Source: Nitrosopumilales archaeon
GTDB lineage: Archaea; Thermoproteota; Nitrososphaeria; Nitrososphaerales; Nitrososphaeraceae
Direction of reading: 5' to 3'
DNA length: 51,571 nt
Assembly (NCBI GenBank): GCA_044507735.1
Contig: JBIQJB010000014.1
Span: 1 to 51,571 of the forward strand
In this document: positions 4,005 through 11,184 of the stretch, one piece after another
Layout of the letters: every line of letters begins with the position of its first letter
Position numbering within the stretch: the first letter of the stretch is position 1
The notes under the pieces: model-generated
Seen by the model: the letters and a program-made list of their open reading frames with translations, nothing else
Databases searched by the model: none
What the model was told of the DNA's origin: nothing
Position numbers and translations under genes: made by a program

Positions 4005-5006
4005 TTAGGGGTTGATTGACGCTAATAGCTTAGATAGGCTGAACGGTTTTGTTATAATATCAATGCCCGGCTCGCTTTTTCCTGCATCTGCTATCGACGT
4101 CGTAGTTACAACAATTCTCTTATCAGGCAGCTTTTCCTTTATCTTTCTGGCAACCTCAACTATATTGTACTCATTGGAGTTAGCATCCATGATAATAAGG
4201 TCAAAACCTGCGTCTCCGTTGCTAAAGATGCGATCGAGGCATTCGGTACTGTTGTCTACAATCATTACATCGAACCCCATCTTAGAAAGATAGCGACTAT
4301 ACAAATACTTCATATCAGGATTCGACTCTGAAATCAAAGCTCTCCTTGCTCCATGCCTTCCAACATTGTGCTGGCCATCAGCAGACTGCATACTCGGTCT
4401 TTTGTAATGGTCGAGGTGAAGCGTCAGGGTGTGCACGCTCGCAATCATGTCCTTTGAATCCATATTTAGAATTCTACTCGGATGTGGACAGATTACTGTG
4501 ATGTTCTGCTCATTGTTTTTCCATCCCTGATAGACGCTCTGCCACCAGCTTTCCAGCGCCACACACTCCTCAAATTGCCCACTTTCTGACAACGTGCAAG
4601 CTGCGTCAGCAAAGACCAACACCCTGTCTCCCCTGCGGCCATCCATCTTCTGGTTTAGCAGCCGTTCAAGCTTGATCTTGAGCTGCCAAAAGGATGCAAG
4701 GCTACCCTTTTGAGCGGATTCAAAGAAAGGTTTCAAATCCACCACAACAAGATTGCCCTTTCTTACGTTTTCCTCGAAATCTGTTATCATAGAAGATATC
4801 CTAGATGTGTGCCACTTGCTGGCGCTATCGAGTGCGCCGACTGAGGCATAAACACAGAGGCGGTTATTTCTTAATCCCTCATCTATACAATGCGCTGCCG
4901 CAATGTTGCGCTCATTGTCACTGTCGTAAAGCAACATTACGTGTTCAGGACGTGCAGGACTAACTAGGCTTGTCATCTGTTGTTCTTTGTCTCCTCCCTC
5001 TGGCAT
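4005..5006 (-). CDS. MEDS (DcmR-like) sensory domain fused to a receiver domain
   Basis: EHVMLLYDS...GL..N.LCVY and LE.WW..ICP MEDS motifs. C-terminal REC domain with DLIIMD and KPF. Confidence 0.75.
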   Translation of the reverse strand: MPEGGDKEQQMTSLVSPARPEHVMLLYDSDNERNIAAAHCIDEGLRNNRLCVYASVGALDSASKWHTSRISSMITDFEENVRKGNLVVVDLKPFFESAQKGSLASFWQLKIKLERLLNQKMDGRRGDRVLVFADAACTLSESGQFEECVALESWWQSVYQGWKNNEQNITVICPHPSRILNMDSKDMIASVHTLTLHLDHYKRPSMQSADGQHNVGRHGARRALISESNPDMKYLYSRYLSKMGFDVMIVDNSTECLDRIFSNGDAGFDLIIMDANSNEYNIVEVARKIKEKLPDKRIVVTTTSIADAGKSEPGIDIITKPFSLSKLLASINP

Positions 5007-5171
5007 TAGCTAAGCAACATGATATTTCAATAACTGTCCTTGCATTTCTAAAGCAACAGATGCTACCTGTTGGGTCTTCCTGCGTCATAATAGTTATCAG
5101 GCAACCAGAAGACAATCGAAATAATAAATAATGATGATGTATTTTTCGATAGAAAAATCTCTAACAATTGA

Positions 5172-5885
5172 CTATTTCTTGCCACCATAGGTCCACAGGG
5201 CACCACTGATCGCACCAAGGGCAAACCAGAATGCAGTCATGGATAGCGAGATAGCGGATCGCCATGCGTTTATCACAGGCTGCGGAAGAAAGGAGTCATC
5301 TTCACTTTCGTAATCAGGAAAGACAAGGAATGCGCCCGCCACTACTGCGAGATAAAGGGCACCTGCGCCAAACACCTTCTCCTTCCTCCTTACCTTGCTA
5401 AAGCCATATGCTATTGATGCAGCCGCAACGCCCGACACCGCAGTATATCCAATCAGGAGCGGCTGGTAGACGGCGGCTGCCTCGGAGCGGAACACCGCCT
5501 CAGGGCTTGGAGGGTATTTCAACGTAGGCACAACATACAAGACAAACCATGCAATTCCTGCTATCACCAAAGCAGATTTTAACGCACTCACCCCAGCATT
5601 TTTGCTGTTGATAGCTATGAATGCGCTGCCAACCAGAATCCCACCTCCGAGCCCGGTCACTATCGCCCCGTACTGCTGCGAAAAGTAGATAGATTGAATC
5701 TGTACATCAAACTCTTCTTCGTCAAACGCCCCATCTGCAAGAAGGTTCTCAAGTTCAATGTCTGCAAGCAACATAGTATATGGTTGCACGAGCGCAAGGT
5801 TGATTCCTGCAAGGATACCTCCAGCAACGACTCCAGCCACTAGTGCCAGACCAATAATTCTGCCAGTAGCCTGTTCAATACTCAT
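5172..5885 (-). CDS. cbtA: CbtA-family putative cobalt transporter subunit
   Basis: About 6 TM helices and the family motif W...VVP.LKYPPSP ... WR.AI....FW. Confidence 0.8.
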   Translation of the reverse strand: MSIEQATGRIIGLALVAGVVAGGILAGINLALVQPYTMLLADIELENLLADGAFDEEEFDVQIQSIYFSQQYGAIVTGLGGGILVGSAFIAINSKNAGVSALKSALVIAGIAWFVLYVVPTLKYPPSPEAVFRSEAAAVYQPLLIGYTAVSGVAAASIAYGFSKVRRKEKVFGAGALYLAVVAGAFLVFPDYESEDDSFLPQPVINAWRSAISLSMTAFWFALGAISGALWTYGGKK

Positions 5886-6118
5886 ATCTCTTCTTCAAGT
5901 TCTTCAAACGCGGATGCTTTGGAGATTTCGTGGAGTCGCATGGCGACTCTCCGGCGGTACTCTGCCTTGTTGATCATGCCCTTTTCGTCGAGCATATCAA
6001 CTAGCGTGTCCAGCCGGGCGCTCAGCTCTTCGGTTTCGCTCAGCTCCTTGCCGGTTATCTTCTTGGGCGCTGCAAGATCGTTGTCATGGTCATCCCCACG
6101 GCTACGGCGGCCACTCAT
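5882..6118 (-). CDS. Small hypothetical protein translationally coupled to cbtA
   Basis: ATGA overlap with the cbtA start. LVDMLDEKGMINKAEY helical motif. Start taken at ATG 6118 (ORF track gives 6229). Confidence 0.6.
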   Translation of the reverse strand: MSGRRSRGDDHDNDLAAPKKITGKELSETEELSARLDTLVDMLDEKGMINKAEYRRRVAMRLHEISKASAFEELEEEI

Positions 6119-6461
6119 CTTCCTTTTCTGCTTGTCTGCTGCAACCATCCAGCTGGATTGGCGGGGCGGAAGTATATAATTGTCAGTTGAGCAGCTTGAG
6201 ACCCTGCTAGAGCATTCCACACATACCAATCAAACCCGCAAATCCCCTTATTGCACAAATCGGAGGCAAGCAAAGGGCGTTCGGAACCGTTGACTCCTGA
6301 CGGCCTCATTGGGAAATTTAGTATGCGTAGCGGGTACTGAGAACCTTCAGAAATGGCGATTCAGTTGTGCAAGAAGGTGGGTTTTGTGACAAATCACCTT
6401 TCTGGCTGCGTGAGAGATGTTTTAAATATTGTCATGTGGCATTCGACTTTATTAGTCCAAT

Positions 6462-6818
6462 ATGACAGCTACAAGCGAGTTGGAATGGTACCTCCGTGAC
6501 CATCTGTTCAGGCAGTCAAACGCTGACAAGAGTTCGTTCAGGAAAGAGTCGCTTCCAAATGAGATGGTGACACTTTACCTGCGGTACAGGAATGCTGACC
6601 TCCAGCAGCTGTCGCAATTGATGGAGCCTGTGGTACAGAACTTGGTTTCAAGAAGAGTGCTCGAGCAAGAGGGCAACGAGTTGAAGTTGCCCGGCAGGCT
6701 ATCGCGGCTCCAATGCGCAAGGTGCTTTTATATCAACTATCTTGCAGAAGTAGAACCAAGGTCATGTCTCCGATGCCAGCACCCCGAGCTTTACGATTTT
6801 CCAAGGAAGAAAGCTTGA
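6462..6818 (+). CDS. Hypothetical protein, winged-helix-like N-terminus plus C-terminal Zn ribbon
   Basis: CARC-x11-CLRC. TATA-like TTTAAATA about 35 nt upstream. Ends 24 nt before ycaO. Confidence 0.75.
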   Translation: MTATSELEWYLRDHLFRQSNADKSSFRKESLPNEMVTLYLRYRNADLQQLSQLMEPVVQNLVSRRVLEQEGNELKLPGRLSRLQCARCFYINYLAEVEPRSCLRCQHPELYDFPRKKA

Positions 6819-6842
6819 TATGAACTCCGGCAAGAGTTCTAT

Positions 6843-8171
6843 TTGGTGCAGCTGCAGAGCAGGAAGAAGTGGACCATAAACGGGACATCCAGAATTAGGC
6901 CGGCGCAAGAGACTTTGGAAAAGGTCATCCCGATTTCAAGGAGGATAGGGGTTACAAGGCTTGCGGACATTACAGACATGGATGTGCTTCGCATTCCAAA
7001 CTACTCCTCAGTCTTGCCAGGCACAGAGGATTACATCTGGGTCTACAGTGGCAAAGGTCCTACCAGAGAGCATGCAATGGCAAGTGCCTTGATGGAGAGC
7101 ATCGAGAGATATTCATCGCTCCCATCGGGTGGGACATGGAAATTTATCAGGTCGAGCTATGCAGACCTATCAAAGACTCGAAGGGTTTTGCACCCAGACA
7201 AGATAGTTGAGCCAACACGCTTTGAATACCGCGACGACATGCTTATGGACTGGCTGCCAGGCTACGACATTGCAAGTGGCGAGGAGGTGATGGTGCCCGC
7301 ATCGGTGGCGCTCTTTCGTTACACACCTTCCCCTCCTGCAGTCAACCCGTATGCGTATTTCCACACAAACGGGCTTGCGTCTGGCAACGTAATGGAGGAA
7401 GCAGTGTGTCATGCGCTTTGCGAAGTAATCGAAAGAGACGCCATCAGCCTTGCCGAGCTTAGAGCAAGTGCGATCCCATTCCACATTTTGAGGACAATAC
7501 ATCATTCGCTGACCTCTGCGGGACTGAAGCTGCCCCCCATTCCTGCTCATAGCTTTGTAGACGATCCAAGCGTATTCCCTGAAGTCGATATATCAGACAT
7601 AGATTTTGAGCCTGTCAGAAGCCTCGTTGAAAAATTCGAGCGGGCAGGCATCTCGTTGACGATAAAGGACATTACCTCAGACATTGGAATCCCTACGTTC
7701 AATGCCAGTAGCGTGGAGTGGGTCACCCATGACTACGGCTACCTTGCTGAGGGCCATGGCACGCACCCGGACGCAAGGATAGCCCTATTGCGGGCGATAA
7801 CAGAGGTGTCACAGACAAGGGCAGCCAACATACAAGGTGCAAGGGACGATCTGCGCAAGATAAAGTATGGCGAGCAAAACACAGACGACCGGCGCGCATG
7901 GCAGTTCATGCCGTCATCAAGAAAGATCAAATTCTCGGAAGTCAAGACGTTTTTTAACGAAGACATTCTTGACGACATCAAGCTTATATTGTCACGGCTC
8001 CAAGCCGCGGGGCTCTCTCAGGTGATAATCGTTGATCTTACAAACCCAGAAATTGGAATCCCTGTTGTCAGAGCAATAGTGCCGGGTCTGGAGACCTTTA
8101 AGATAACAAAATCTGTGATGGGCGTGCGCGCAAGAGCGTGTTTTGGACAATGGAAGAAAGCAAGCCAGTAA
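6843..8171 (+). CDS. ycaO: YcaO-family ATP-dependent backbone-modifying enzyme (TfuA-associated, thioamide-forming type)
   Basis: GVTRLADIT, SGKG.T...A.ASALMESIERYS, TNGLASGN..EEA..HALCEVIERD, RAITEV.QTR, PVVRAIVPGLE. No C-terminal PxP motif. Confidence 0.93.
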   Translation: MVQLQSRKKWTINGTSRIRPAQETLEKVIPISRRIGVTRLADITDMDVLRIPNYSSVLPGTEDYIWVYSGKGPTREHAMASALMESIERYSSLPSGGTWKFIRSSYADLSKTRRVLHPDKIVEPTRFEYRDDMLMDWLPGYDIASGEEVMVPASVALFRYTPSPPAVNPYAYFHTNGLASGNVMEEAVCHALCEVIERDAISLAELRASAIPFHILRTIHHSLTSAGLKLPPIPAHSFVDDPSVFPEVDISDIDFEPVRSLVEKFERAGISLTIKDITSDIGIPTFNASSVEWVTHDYGYLAEGHGTHPDARIALLRAITEVSQTRAANIQGARDDLRKIKYGEQNTDDRRAWQFMPSSRKIKFSEVKTFFNEDILDDIKLILSRLQAAGLSQVIIVDLTNPEIGIPVVRAIVPGLETFKITKSVMGVRARACFGQWKKASQ

Positions 8172-8827
8172 TATTCCTGGGGCCGTCGCTAAGCCACGAG
8201 AAAGCAAGAAAGATTCTTGATGCAGACTATAGGCCTCCTGCGAAAAAAGGCGACTTTTTGCGGCTGGCAGCAGATCCAAAGGTCACTATGGTAGGCTTTG
8301 TCGACGGTGTCTTCCTGCAGGACTACCCTCCTACGCCAATCGAAGTATACCAGCTGGCAAGAAGACCGGGCGTCTTTCTGGCCGGCGCGGCAAGCCTTGG
8401 TGCGCTGCGCGCGGTCGAGCTTGAAAAGTTTGGGATGGTGGGAATTGGCAAGGTATTCCAGCTATACAAATCTGGAAAAGTAATTGCCGACGACGAAGTG
8501 GCAGTCACATTTGCGCAAGAAGGCGACGACTACCGGCTCCAGTCAGAAGCAATGATAGACATCCGCTACAACCTCTTTCTTGCGCACAAGAAAGCCATTA
8601 TCAGCAAAAAGACCAAAGTCGCGATCTCCAAAGTTGCCAAAGAGATCTATTTCCCACACCGTAACTATGCGCACATTGCCGAGGAGTCGAAGAACAGACA
8701 TCCAAATCTTGCCAAAGAGATCGACTCGTTTGTCAGCTATCTAGCGTCCAACAGGAAAAGCCTGAAAGAAATCGACGCCATAAGGCTGATACATTATCTC
8801 AAGGAGCAGTTTGAGAAGCGCGCATAA
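8150..8827 (+). CDS. tfuA: TfuA-like protein
   Basis: IFLGPSL, PPAKKGD, VDGVF, GAASLGALRAVEL...GMVGIG, DDEVAV. Overlaps the 3' end of ycaO. Start taken at ATG 8150. Confidence 0.93.
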   Translation: MEESKPVIFLGPSLSHEKARKILDADYRPPAKKGDFLRLAADPKVTMVGFVDGVFLQDYPPTPIEVYQLARRPGVFLAGAASLGALRAVELEKFGMVGIGKVFQLYKSGKVIADDEVAVTFAQEGDDYRLQSEAMIDIRYNLFLAHKKAIISKKTKVAISKVAKEIYFPHRNYAHIAEESKNRHPNLAKEIDSFVSYLASNRKSLKEIDAIRLIHYLKEQFEKRA

Positions 8828-9713
8828 ATGATAATGGGGGTATTGCTTTGGGAGAGGGCAATTGCCACTACAGCGGCATGCCTCGCGCCCGGATCAATGT
8901 TGGGATTGTAATAGTCACGTTCACTCCATTGACGTTGTCTGACTACATGGTTGCCTAGGCACACTGGCTGCTCTGGAGGAGTGACCACTTCAGCCGCCTG
9001 GGCTGCCTGAAAATCACTTCAGGCAGCGAGATCTTGCAGACAAAACAGGCCACACGAAGTAAGAATCACTTGCTCCAAACAGATGATGATGGGTGATGGT
9101 GCGGGCCAGAACCATGATTTCTGCAAGGAGCGACTTTACGATGATGGCACTTAATTCCTGCTGTGCAAAGTAAGAACGATGTTGTCTTCTCTTTCAACAC
9201 CTCCTAATCTAGACGATCGAGCATACAAACCACCGACGAGTCAACCAATGGCTCCGAACATACCTTTTCAGCTAGTGCTCCAGCCCAAGATCGAACCTGA
9301 GCATCATATCAACAATTTCGCTCTTAGTCGGCTGGCGGTAAGGTAAAGTCCTCAGGCATGCCTACAAGAAGACAGTAGTGGAAAACTAGCATTTGGCACA
9401 CTCCGCTGCAGTGAAGCCCATAACAAGAGGCTAGGCCTGGCCAATTACCAGCAGATGCCATCCGGCCAAAAGAGCGCGACCATCGCACACTTGTATCATC
9501 GAATCAAACTAATCGCAAGGGTGCATTCCACTTCCCTTTGGAAGATAGCATCGCCTCCAATCCGTGAACTCTTCTTGTCCTCCCACAGAATAGTCGGGAC
9601 GGTGCAATCAGATTCTGTTGTGCACTACCGCTTCCCGAATACCACGTCCATGTATGCTTCACTCTCTTGCCCAGTTGCACCATAACTGGTTCACAGATCT
9701 ATCGCCAATTTTT

Positions 9714-10079
9714 CTATGAGTCGAGAGTTGCATTCACTTGAGTAACTAGACTTGCTATACTGATCGGCTTTCTGATGAATGCCCTCACGTCAATATTCGG
9801 AAACATCTTTCGGAACTCGTCGTAATAGATTTCAAATGCAGTGAGGAAGCACACCTTGACGGTCGCGTCCTTTTTCTTGAGCTCTCGATACAGGTCAAAT
9901 CCGTTCAGCTTGGGCATTCTGATGTCAATTATCATCAGGTCGTAACGGCCAGGCTTGAAACTGACAAGCGCGGCGTAAGGGTCGTTAAAGACGTCAACCG
10001 AAAAGCCGTGATGCTCAAGCCCCCTCTTTAGGACGGTGGTAATATCAGGCTCGTCGTCAACCACCGCAACCTTCTTCAT
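9714..10079 (-). CDS. Stand-alone response regulator receiver (CheY-like)
   Basis: VVDDE, DLMIIDIRMPKLNG, FLTA, RKP. Confidence 0.93.
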   Translation of the reverse strand: MKKVAVVDDEPDITTVLKRGLEHHGFSVDVFNDPYAALVSFKPGRYDLMIIDIRMPKLNGFDLYRELKKKDATVKVCFLTAFEIYYDEFRKMFPNIDVRAFIRKPISIASLVTQVNATLDS

Positions 10080-10187
10080 ATTGGGAAATGGGATTTTCAG
10101 AGGGCTATTTTAATACAGTGGATTTGTTTTCCATCCCGAGCTATACTCTTAAATCATCACTTAACTCATTTCTCCAAGTAAGGGCAT

Positions 10188-10772
10188 ATGAAGATATACA
10201 CCAAGACAGGCGACATGGGCGAAACCGGACTTATTGGCGGCATGCGGGTGAGCAAAGCGGATCCGAGGATCGTCGCCTACGGTGCGGTCGATGAGCTGAA
10301 CTCTTGCATTGGTCTTGCGATCTCGTTTATGCGAGAAAATGGTGGGAGACAGCTGCAGCCGCTTTCAGATCTCGTTGATGTCTTGGTGCAAGTGCAAAAC
10401 GATCTTTTTGTGGTTGGCTCTGATCTTGCGGACCCAACATATCCAGAACCGAGCAAGACGCCTCGCACAAGCAAAATGATGGCCTCTGCGCTTGAGCATA
10501 ACATCGACAGATTTGAAGCAGAGCTTCAGCCGATAACCTTCTTCATCCTGCCTGGAGGAAGTATAGAAGCTTCGCTTTTGCATCAGGCAAGAGGCGTGGC
10601 ACGTAGAGCAGAGACTGCGGCGGTATCACTCGCAAAATGCGAGACGGTTAACCCTGCAATAATTGTCTATCTCAACAGGCTCTCTGATTTGTTGTTTGTC
10701 TCAGCGAGGCTTGCAAACAAGAGGCTCGGGGTGCCCGATGTAGCTTGGAGAACCGGTAATAGTAAGGAATAA
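10188..10772 (+). CDS. pduO: PduO-type ATP:cob(I)alamin adenosyltransferase
   Basis: KIYTKTGD.GETGL, YGAVDELNS, FILPGG, ARRAE, YLNRLSDLLF. Confidence 0.95.
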   Translation: MKIYTKTGDMGETGLIGGMRVSKADPRIVAYGAVDELNSCIGLAISFMRENGGRQLQPLSDLVDVLVQVQNDLFVVGSDLADPTYPEPSKTPRTSKMMASALEHNIDRFEAELQPITFFILPGGSIEASLLHQARGVARRAETAAVSLAKCETVNPAIIVYLNRLSDLLFVSARLANKRLGVPDVAWRTGNSKE

Positions 10773-11184
10773 CCTGCTACCAACAATCTGGTCAAAATCC
10801 ACCATGAAGAAATCCCATAATTGACAGCGGCCTCTTGGATAGGCTTTGGGCCAGATCTTTAACTGAGCAAGAGCACGTGTAATCACCATGCGGATGCCTG
10901 CCGAGACTTTGGCAGTTGTGTGCTTTGCCGATCTTATCCTTGCCTTTATAAACGACGAGGCCATGAAAGTGGCACCGAATGTTTCAGTTGGCGCGCCGGC
11001 ATAGGGCCAATATTCGCTAGCTTTAAAGTCAAGTGCTACACCTTCTTCATCGAATGGCGACCAGCAAGGAAGGAGAGTCCAGTTGCCCTTACTGCGGATC
11101 CAAGTTCAAGGATAACGAAGAGCTTTCAAAGCACATAGATAGAATCCATCATGGCTCTGGGCTGCTTGAAGGCGACTCCAGGAA

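Follow-up and report, generated by a model that had tools for sequence, protein, structure and literature searches.

A YcaO-TfuA gene pair from an archaeal genome and a small, unlinked protein as its candidate substrate

The 51,571-nt stretch of DNA analysed here (the window), from a soil ammonia-oxidising archaeon, carries a ycaO gene and an overlapping tfuA gene, which, as predicted from their sequences, most likely encode a working ATP-dependent backbone thioamidation pair. The likeliest substrate of YcaO-TfuA is a 59-residue protein of the nitrile hydratase leader peptide (NHLP) clan that is encoded outside the window; gene linkage and co-occurrence point to it, and a probability of roughly 0.6 is assigned to this reading. 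Coordinates are positions in the window unless a contig (C) or locus (L) is named. The genome of the window has 2.33 Mb and is 97% complete. The genes in question are the following:

6462..6818, plus strand: gene of a predicted winged-helix/Zn-ribbon protein (ZnR118), 118 aa, ATG start, from the list of open reading frames (ORFs)
6843..8171, plus strand: ycaO, 442 aa, TTG start, from the ORF list and PF02624
8138..8827, plus strand: tfuA, 229 aa, GTG start, from the ORF list and PF07812
C3:116369-116548 (locus L072:1498-1677:-), minus strand: the small gene in the same genome, 59 aa, profile match with E 3e-22

The three genes of the window, all on the plus strand, are real and lie exactly where an initial annotation of this DNA had placed them. 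By their ORF coordinates, the ZnR118 gene and ycaO are spaced by 24 nt, while 34 nt are shared by ycaO and tfuA. The single operon that had been proposed for all three is upheld for ycaO-tfuA, side by side in 21 of 21 loci, and not for the Zn-ribbon gene, which is found on either strand or elsewhere in relatives.

YcaO matches PF02624 over the entire model (positions 1-325 of 325, E 8e-81, 272.3 bits at a cut-off of 25.7), and TfuA matches PF07812 (E 3.2e-35, 121 bits, cut-off 30). The best NCBIfam models are those of McrA thioamidation, yet both proteins stay under the equivalog cut-offs: YcaO reaches 297.2 bits against TIGR03266 (cut-off 365) and TfuA 200.1 bits against NF033432 (cut-off 235.2). 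The nearest solved structure to YcaO is Methanocaldococcus jannaschii MJ1094 (6pe3/6peu, E 7e-40). A genome search found ycaO to be the single YcaO-encoding gene, and the protein has a single domain. A Pro-rich C-terminus with a PxPxP motif is used as a criterion for azoline-forming YcaO enzymes. As the initial annotation had noted, such a C-terminus is missing here, the final 30 residues containing one Pro and no PxPxP. A cyclodehydratase partner is neither fused to YcaO, whose 442 aa hold only the one domain, nor encoded among the scanned neighbours at 4005-6229 and 9714-10772. Among these, Pfam gave no E1/ThiF-like partner, peptidase or peptide exporter, in line with the earlier statement that no cyclodehydratase partner, protease or transporter is adjacent. 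The genome also holds two frames that exceed the cut-off for the ThiS family.

A profile of 21 YcaO sequences was aligned by hhalign with E. coli YcaO (probability 96.7%, 25% identity), for which the ATP/Mg residues are presumably those attributed to Dunbar 2014. In this alignment, S81, E85, E88, N182 and E194 match S71, E75, E78, N187 and E199 of the E. coli protein, and E197, R198, R317 and E321 match E202, R203, R286 and E290. All nine residues are invariant in the 21 sequences, and they fall into three motifs:

7083..7109, plus strand: ATP/Mg motif 1 of YcaO, S81, E85, E88 and R89; the first three matched by hhalign, all four invariant in 21 sequences
7368..7439, plus strand: ATP/Mg motif 2, N182, E194, E197 and R198, matched by hhalign and invariant in 21 sequences
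7791..7805, plus strand: ATP/Mg motif 3, R317 to E321, matched by hhalign and invariant in 21 sequences

An E202A variant of E. coli YcaO has served as an activity test (PMC13063428; this paper, like the others given below by PMC number, is cited from a part of its text). Degenerate ATP-binding residues, which the initial annotation had named as a possible objection, are not seen among the nine. Its assignment of the enzyme to the thioamide-forming kind agrees with the adjacent tfuA, the best NCBIfam models and the intact catalytic residues.

Synteny was analysed in about 19.5 kb around ycaO-tfuA (13.7 and 14.9 kb at contig ends) in 20 genomes from four families, with ORFs called and clustered. 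The only constant gene pair is ycaO-tfuA itself, adjacent in all 21 loci and with overlapping ORF calls in most. The sole neighbour that recurs across families is an ORF of about 60 aa, located directly 5' of ycaO and divergent from it, and this was the outcome of the synteny check across the order that had been proposed earlier. The small gene lies head-to-head with ycaO in most sister genera and is unlinked in Nitrososphaera, the genus of the window. The same arrangement was found in public data. Among 80 named public contigs from a profile search, 47 have the small gene head-to-head with ycaO-tfuA. In 26 of the other 33, the contig extends for more than 1.6 kb upstream, so that the small gene is truly unlinked there; most of these are titled Nitrososphaera sp. 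The description of the system as an orphan is thus apt for the locus, with no substrate gene beside it in the window's genome, and probably not for the genome as a whole, which holds the unlinked 59-residue candidate.

Co-occurrence was assessed by searching one set of 151 genomes from the order, the window's own included, with both TfuA and a profile of the small protein. The counts for six families (f) are:

f1: TfuA 31/31, small protein 31/31
f4: TfuA 7/7, small protein 6/7
f9: TfuA 10/10, small protein 9/10
f12: TfuA 3/9, small protein 1 weak match in 9
f10: TfuA 0/32, small protein 0/32
f13: TfuA 0/32, small protein 1 weak match in 32

Strong matches (E <= 4.5e-10) occur in 47 of the 52 TfuA-positive genomes and in none of the 99 TfuA-negative ones. 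The two weak matches fall within long frames (467 and 206 aa) and are likely to be spurious. Five TfuA-positive genomes gave no strong match, namely G065 and G099, where tfuA lies at a contig end, and three f12 genomes with McrA. Within the 47 genomes, the small gene is at most 3.6 kb from tfuA in 31 and unlinked in 16 (13 from the window's genus, one from g19 and two from g36). There is one strong match per genome, to which G161 adds a weak second match (E 0.003).

Other TfuA-positive genomes are linked to McrA, the subunit of methyl-coenzyme M reductase (MCR) that is thioamidated in other archaea. All three TfuA-positive f12 genomes that lack the small protein carry McrA. Similarly, a sample of 300 genomes from the phylum contains 27 other TfuA-positive genomes (24 of 24 in f25 and three in f51), 26 of which have McrA, in many cases on one contig with tfuA and at a distance of about 5 kb; a search for the small protein in five of the 27 found it in none. 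The pattern is thus one of alternatives, in which ycaO-tfuA adjoins, or is found together with, either of two candidate substrates, McrA and the small protein. In the window's genome the C-terminal domain of McrA (PF02249) gave no match in a search that was positive in two methanogens, which bears out the earlier statement that MCR is missing. Two full-length archaeal amoA matches are located on different contigs of this genome:

C17:115287-115835, minus strand: amoA copy, E 3e-120
C9:29699-30247, plus strand: amoA copy, E 2e-115

Three f12 genomes, filed in the order of the window, combine McrA with a ycaO-tfuA pair of the MCR type (loci G069:C53:7410-7790, G087:C38:2142-2522 and G106:C28:3283-3663) and are thus MCR-bearing relatives beside the ammonia oxidisers. 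In G069, the f12 genome tested for it, amoA was not found.

The phylogeny of YcaO separates the two kinds of enzyme. A quick maximum-likelihood tree was built from 52 rows, after removal of rows with fewer than 400 profile positions and of most identical duplicates. The labels of ammonia-oxidising archaea (AOA) type and MCR type were assigned by locus origin, and 14 of the 15 genomes with the MCR label gave a match to McrA. The 37 AOA-type rows split from the 15 MCR-type rows along a branch with a length of about 3.9 changes per site and a Shimodaira-Hasegawa-like approximate likelihood ratio test (SH-aLRT) value of 100. A comparison with MCR-bearing archaea, another of the checks that had been suggested, thus yields a separate AOA-type group. 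The YcaO sequences of f12 group with the MCR type despite their filing in the window's order. The AOA type is also marked by an insertion:

7470..7577, plus strand: insertion of about 35 residues in AOA-type YcaO, residues 210-245, directly after the second ATP motif

Its blocks 210-225, 228-234 and 236-245 are filled in more than 80% of the 37 AOA-type rows and in fewer than 20% of the 15 MCR-type rows. In a structure comparison, MJ1094 has no counterpart to residues 213-256 of the query.

The small ORF is a real gene, as judged from its substitution pattern: pairwise differences among 77 in-register homologues (of 81) amount to 23%, 15% and 62% at codon positions 1, 2 and 3, and it is the excess at third positions that argues for a coding sequence. 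A profile of 13 sequences found 735 homologues at E <= 0.001 in 90% clusters. Each of the listed homologues that a source names is called a 'hypothetical protein', and nearly all come from Nitrososphaera, Nitrosocosmicus or Nitrosocaldus. Two listed homologues bear other labels, namely metagenome-assembled genomes of a Nitrosopumilus sp. and of a Saccharimonadales bacterium. Against 1.84 billion proteins, the same profile yielded 181 representatives at E <= 0.001.

The protein family was assigned through relatives. Five homologues of the small protein from related genomes (L057, L059, L065, L067 and L069; the copy of the window's genome was not among them) were scanned against NCBIfam, and all five gave sub-threshold matches to models of the NHLP/Os1348 type. 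The best was NF038399 of the Os1348 family (E 2e-7, 30.9 bits, cut-off 40). TIGR03793 reached at most 21.9 bits (cut-off 50.9), and Frankia_peptide and NHase_alpha also remained under their cut-offs. From 150 listed distant relatives, 53 were picked from rank 19 downward, and 52 of these match models of the NHLP clan, many over the cut-off. Taken together, the sub-threshold matches and the clan membership of these relatives identify the small protein, on sequence grounds, as a divergent and short member of the NHLP leader-peptide clan. Among the relatives P0139, P0157, P0162, P0171 and P0216, some have two to four tandem NHLP-like domains and some are fusions. Fusion partners among the relatives are an OmpL47-type beta-barrel domain (P0157) and an anti-sigma antagonist domain (P0153, P0161).

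The predicted structure of the small protein (predicted local distance difference test, pLDDT, 85) consists of helices at residues 3-21, 23-31, 33-37 and 44-58 and a single loop at residues 38-43. This loop reads E-Q-Y-D-V-S; its Y is found in 76 of 77 sequences and an S three residues further on in all 77. The run of an aromatic residue, D/N and I/V resembles the G-F-D-L that follows thioGly465 in McrA (PMC5589413).

In the proposed mechanism, YcaO would use ATP to activate (phosphorylate or adenylate) one backbone amide of the conserved, cytoplasmic 59-residue protein, and sulfide would then replace the oxygen. TfuA would deliver this sulfide, by analogy, probably from a thiocarboxylated carrier of the ThiS type; Liu is said to have described such a delivery by TfuA in 2021. 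This mechanism is restated in PMC13063428. The modified site would probably lie in loop 38-43, the sole loop of the small protein, with its near-invariant aromatic residue. The insertion at residues 210-245 of YcaO, a candidate substrate-recognition element, may recognise the substrate. The small gene would have moved away from ycaO in Nitrososphaera.

A more far-reaching interpretation, which we put forward only tentatively and hold to be rather less probable than its opposite, is that backbone thioamidation of proteins would exist in a third form, besides those of McrA and uL16. Terrestrial and thermophilic AOA would use an insertion-marked YcaO-TfuA pair to place a thioamide in the loop of a cytoplasmic, unprocessed and unexported protein of the NHLP fold. 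The enzyme lineage would have switched its substrate between McrA and the small protein, and the 'leader peptide' fold would be the end product, for instance as a soft-ligand metal site or as a regulatory small protein.

Several observations weigh against the small protein as the substrate. The f13 ammonia oxidisers (amoA in 3/3 tested) do without the system, as they have no TfuA (0/32) and no strong match to the small protein; the system is therefore not tied to ammonia oxidation itself. The phyletic match may reflect few independent events, with one gain possibly shared by f1, f4 and f9 and one loss by f13, so that the counts, taken from dependent kin, overstate the support. In the window's genome, the small gene is located on another contig than the window, and its neighbours, an Amt-like transporter gene and one for a Thr-rich secreted protein, are functionally uninformative. 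The same applies to the 26 unlinked loci of the Nitrososphaera type and to L072, whose neighbours (Amt, a 388-aa cation-antiporter-like protein, the Thr-rich protein and others) gave no functional clue. The protein scores under every cut-off of the NHLP family, its best value being the 30.9 bits given above. Its likeness to McrA spans three loop residues and is estimated to arise by chance in about one in ten proteins of 59 aa. Fold matches are within noise as well. Foldseek against the PDB gave no hit at E <= 0.001; the best were the LigA-like domains of DesB (E 0.86), followed by the proteusin precursor 8tb1 (E 3, TMq 0.52). A VIA-align search of 48,161 chains gave Z <= 6, which is non-specific for a helical protein; Os1348 (6lk7) ranked ninth within this noise (Z 5.4, 54 residues, root-mean-square deviation 2.5).

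The features of a processed precursor are also missing. Haft is said to have named, in 2010, a double-glycine site, a core peptide and a nearby C39-peptidase/ATP-binding cassette (ABC) exporter as features of NHLP precursors. None of the 13 aligned small proteins has a GG or a recognisable core, and the proteins end 15-20 residues past the leader-like part. No C39-peptidase/ABC exporter was found among the scanned window neighbours or in the loci of relatives. Lacking a double-glycine site and a core, the small protein could be a partner of the enzyme and not its substrate.

As such a partner ('leader in trans', activator or scaffold), it would help to place the thioamide on another protein, e.g. 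a core enzyme or a ribosomal protein, in the manner of McrA or E. coli uL16. Synteny and co-occurrence fit a partner as well as a substrate, and the small protein is almost wholly a leader-like domain. Both characterised YcaO protein substrates, moreover, are large, and their genes lie apart from that of the enzyme or only loosely near it (PMC13063428). We nevertheless regard a partner role as unlikely, if worth keeping in view: the MCR-bearing relatives, with the pair near the substrate gene mcrA, provide a precedent for substrate proximity, annotated NHLP-clan proteins are themselves modified precursors (by their model names and PMC7726476), and the 21 loci offer no second conserved neighbour as a substrate.

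It is quite doubtful that the small protein is the leader and core of an exported ribosomally synthesised, post-translationally modified peptide (RiPP), such as an antibiotic or a copper-binding thioamide peptide, that is cleaved after thioamidation. No protease or C39-ABC exporter is encoded within about 2.8 kb upstream (4005-6229) or at 9714-10772, a double-glycine site is missing, the protein is conserved over its full length and not in a leader alone, and there is only one strong match per genome. The copy in the window's genome has no Cys and no His. NHLP-clan membership would fit an exported RiPP, and antiSMASH-based mining reported eight 'TfuA-related' clusters in Thaumarchaeota (PMC8120280). 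Two permease genes of the Opp/Dpp-type ABC family also follow tfuA in f4 and f9, but these belong to the import type, which depends on a binding protein, and f1 lacks them.

Another chemistry of YcaO, i.e. azoline or amidine formation or some other ATP-dependent amide activation, is very unlikely. The YcaO family is chemically versatile (PMC4603692, PMC13063428), and both YcaO and TfuA score under the equivalog cut-offs for McrA thioamidation. Nonetheless, tfuA adjoins ycaO in every locus, mostly with overlapping ORF calls, the thioamidation models are the best NCBIfam models for both proteins, the nearest solved structure is that of a thioamide-forming enzyme, and no cyclodehydratase partner domain is found.

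The least credible substrate is the neighbouring ZnR118, which the initial annotation had favoured as substrate or adaptor and which is set aside here, as it adjoins ycaO only in this genus and its distribution is unlike that of the enzyme. What speaks for it as a substrate or obligatory adaptor is the gap of 24 nt and the shared strand in the window, and its place next to ycaO in 8 of 10 genomes of the genus (four co-directional, four divergent), where it has stayed through an inversion. Outside the genus, by contrast, it adjoins ycaO in none of 17 genomes and lies 326-485 kb away in three complete ones. Even within the genus it is 13.6 kb from ycaO in G149, ambiguous in G129 and replaced by another gene in L053 and L054. 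In the synteny set, the four loci in which it adjoins ycaO all belong to the window's genus, and in two of them the gene is on the opposite strand. A 17-sequence profile finds the ZnR118 family in 64 of 80 Nitrososphaeraceae genomes and 12 of 14 genera, so that 16 genomes of the family lack a match, whereas TfuA is present in 31 of 31 f1 genomes; among five TfuA-positive genomes of f4 and f9 tested, only one has it. By these counts, ZnR118 is neither co-distributed nor stably linked with the enzyme. The tallies include three genomes flagged as unpublished (G022, G009 and G194), from which no sequence entered the analysis and on which no conclusion depends.

The predicted fold of ZnR118 resembles the DNA-binding winged-helix type, which likewise speaks against a role as a substrate. 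The model (pLDDT 89) shows a winged helix (helix and strand order H-E-H-H-E-E) followed by a small beta/Zn ribbon. Its CxxC...CxxC pattern (C85, C88, C102 and C105) is invariant in 17 aligned sequences. No family match was found in Pfam or NCBIfam. Foldseek gave no hit at E <= 0.001; the best of the weaker ones are winged-helix domains (1cf7_B, E 9e-3, TMq 0.51) and RPB12-type Zn ribbons (5xog_L), each module being hit separately. In the model, the layout of winged helix and Zn ribbon is also that of Pyrococcus PF0610 (2gmg, Foldseek rank 15), although the superposition is poor (TMq 0.28) and there is no sequence family match. ZnR118 is probably a small DNA-binding protein and at most a genus-specific local regulator; its placement next to ycaO fits a transcription factor. 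Four genomes of genus g66 (G198, G203, G182 and G191) have three to four matches to the Zn-ribbon family each, several containing stop codons, an indication of paralogues and of copies in decay.

The gene pair as such is already known from ammonia oxidisers (Nayak et al. 2017, PMC5589413; Malit et al. 2021, PMC8120280). The presence of McrA-type enzymes in ammonia oxidisers that lack McrA has been in print since 2017, with no target named in the cited part of that paper, the tree of which places the ammonia-oxidiser homologues within the clade of the McrA system (PMC5589413). According to the cited part of PMC13063428 (2026), no thioamidated proteins other than McrA and uL16 have been characterised, and its authors deem further YcaO protein substrates probable. 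No source naming a substrate of YcaO-TfuA in ammonia oxidisers was found in a literature search that did not include the supplements of PMC8120280, which possibly list predicted precursors. What is new is a testable candidate substrate.

Among the closest known systems is that of the McrA thioglycine in methanogens and ANME, with Methanosarcina acetivorans as the example (PMC5589413), which is likewise a two-gene ycaO-tfuA unit with a single-domain YcaO and whose models score best for the pair described here. In both cases relatives have the presumed substrate gene close to the pair, i.e. mcrA there and the small gene here. The systems differ in that the window's genome lacks McrA, its YcaO is on a long separate branch and has the insertion of about 35 residues, and the candidate substrate is a helical protein of 59 aa, whereas McrA is an enzyme subunit of 570 aa. 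E. coli YcaO, in turn, thioamidates uL16 at Met82, which is comparable in that the target is a folded protein and not a RiPP; in the model of that work uL16 presents a loop to the active site, and the candidate site here is a single loop as well (PMC13063428). The E. coli enzyme (586 aa, no TfuA; PMC13063428) shares the ATP/Mg residues with YcaO of the window but is distant from it, with the 25% identity given above and only 38 bits for the window protein against NF040716 (cut-off 700).

Among RiPP systems, the thioamitide and thiovarsolin clusters of Actinobacteria also have YcaO-TfuA beside a small precursor gene (PMC8120280). In contrast to them, the scanned neighbours in the window include no tailoring enzymes, protease or exporter, and the candidate is conserved over its full length, has one strong match per genome and shows no repeats and no hypervariable core. 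Os1348 from Pseudomonas sp. Os17 (PDB 6LK7, PMC7726476) is, similarly to the small protein, small and helical, and is thought to be modified by the products of neighbouring genes. Its partners are GNAT, peptidase and SagB-like genes, whereas the small protein is paired with YcaO-TfuA and not with a radical-SAM enzyme or a cyclodehydratase. Unlike the NHLP-clan precursors (TIGR03793, NF038399), the small proteins are archaeal and shorter (57-62 aa), with no double-glycine site or core.

A question that has stood since 2017 is narrowed to one candidate protein of 59 aa. If the proposal is true, it would add a new substrate class for thioamidation, an example, from related archaea, of an enzyme pair whose substrate has switched between McrA and a small protein, and a housekeeping role for a fold that is known otherwise from the leader peptides of RiPPs. 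Should the substrate reading fail, the pair is a well-defined orphan in a globally important group of nitrifiers.

Signals of transcription were also searched for. A scan of 6000-9800 for promoters and terminators gave counts at or under those of shuffled sequence, and a hairpin at 6822-6839 does not count as evidence. One putative element was read off the sequence:

6421..6430, plus strand: TATA-box-like element TTTTAAATAT, about 32-41 nt 5' of the ATG of the ZnR118 gene

The 24 nt between 6818 and 6843 are too short for a comparable TATA-like element. An RNA-library run (X1) contains two short contigs identical to 6919-7088 and 9606-9788, and a second run (X2, probably DNA) covers 262 nt of ycaO with four differences. 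Together, these contigs are too little for inferring transcription or an operon.

Downstream of tfuA, an 887-nt stretch (8828-9713) contains no ORF longer than 76 aa, and none of its small ORFs of at least 20 aa is similar to an NHLP-like protein. An Rfam scan of 5000-11000, which covers this stretch, gave no match at E <= 0.1. In f4 and f9, the two Opp/Dpp-type permease genes lie 3' of tfuA and share its strand (L068:8766-9815:- and L068:7362-8741:-; L065, L067, L069 and L070 also have them), with the opposite orientation in L065. Genus g9 of f9 has an SBF-family transporter gene between the small gene and ycaO. Neither the permeases nor the SBF transporter were seen in loci from the window's family. 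None of the neighbours in other families (SBF, Opp-type permeases, thioredoxin-like protein, PheRS, metallophosphoesterase and DUF6659) is conserved across families.

By Pfam, the scanned neighbours in the window are a protein with MEDS and receiver domains, CbtA, an ORF of 115 aa that matches no family, a protein with a receiver domain and a cobalamin adenosyltransferase. The ORF at 5882-6229 (minus strand), between the CbtA and ZnR118 genes, is small, basic/acidic and 115 aa long as called. Its C-terminal part of about 75 aa is conserved, with a counterpart at L055:7279-7515:- and no Pfam or NCBIfam match. The locus is flanked by a CbtA-like subunit of a cobalt transporter (5172-5885, minus strand) and the cobalamin adenosyltransferase (10188-10772, plus strand), and both genes are found repeatedly near ycaO-tfuA within the genus (clusters c6 and c2). 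This cobalt/cobalamin theme of the neighbourhood is unrelated to thioamidation. The gene at 4005-5006 (minus strand) encodes a protein of 333 aa in which the MEDS sensory domain is N-terminal and the receiver domain C-terminal, and the one at 9714-10079 (minus strand) a stand-alone receiver protein.

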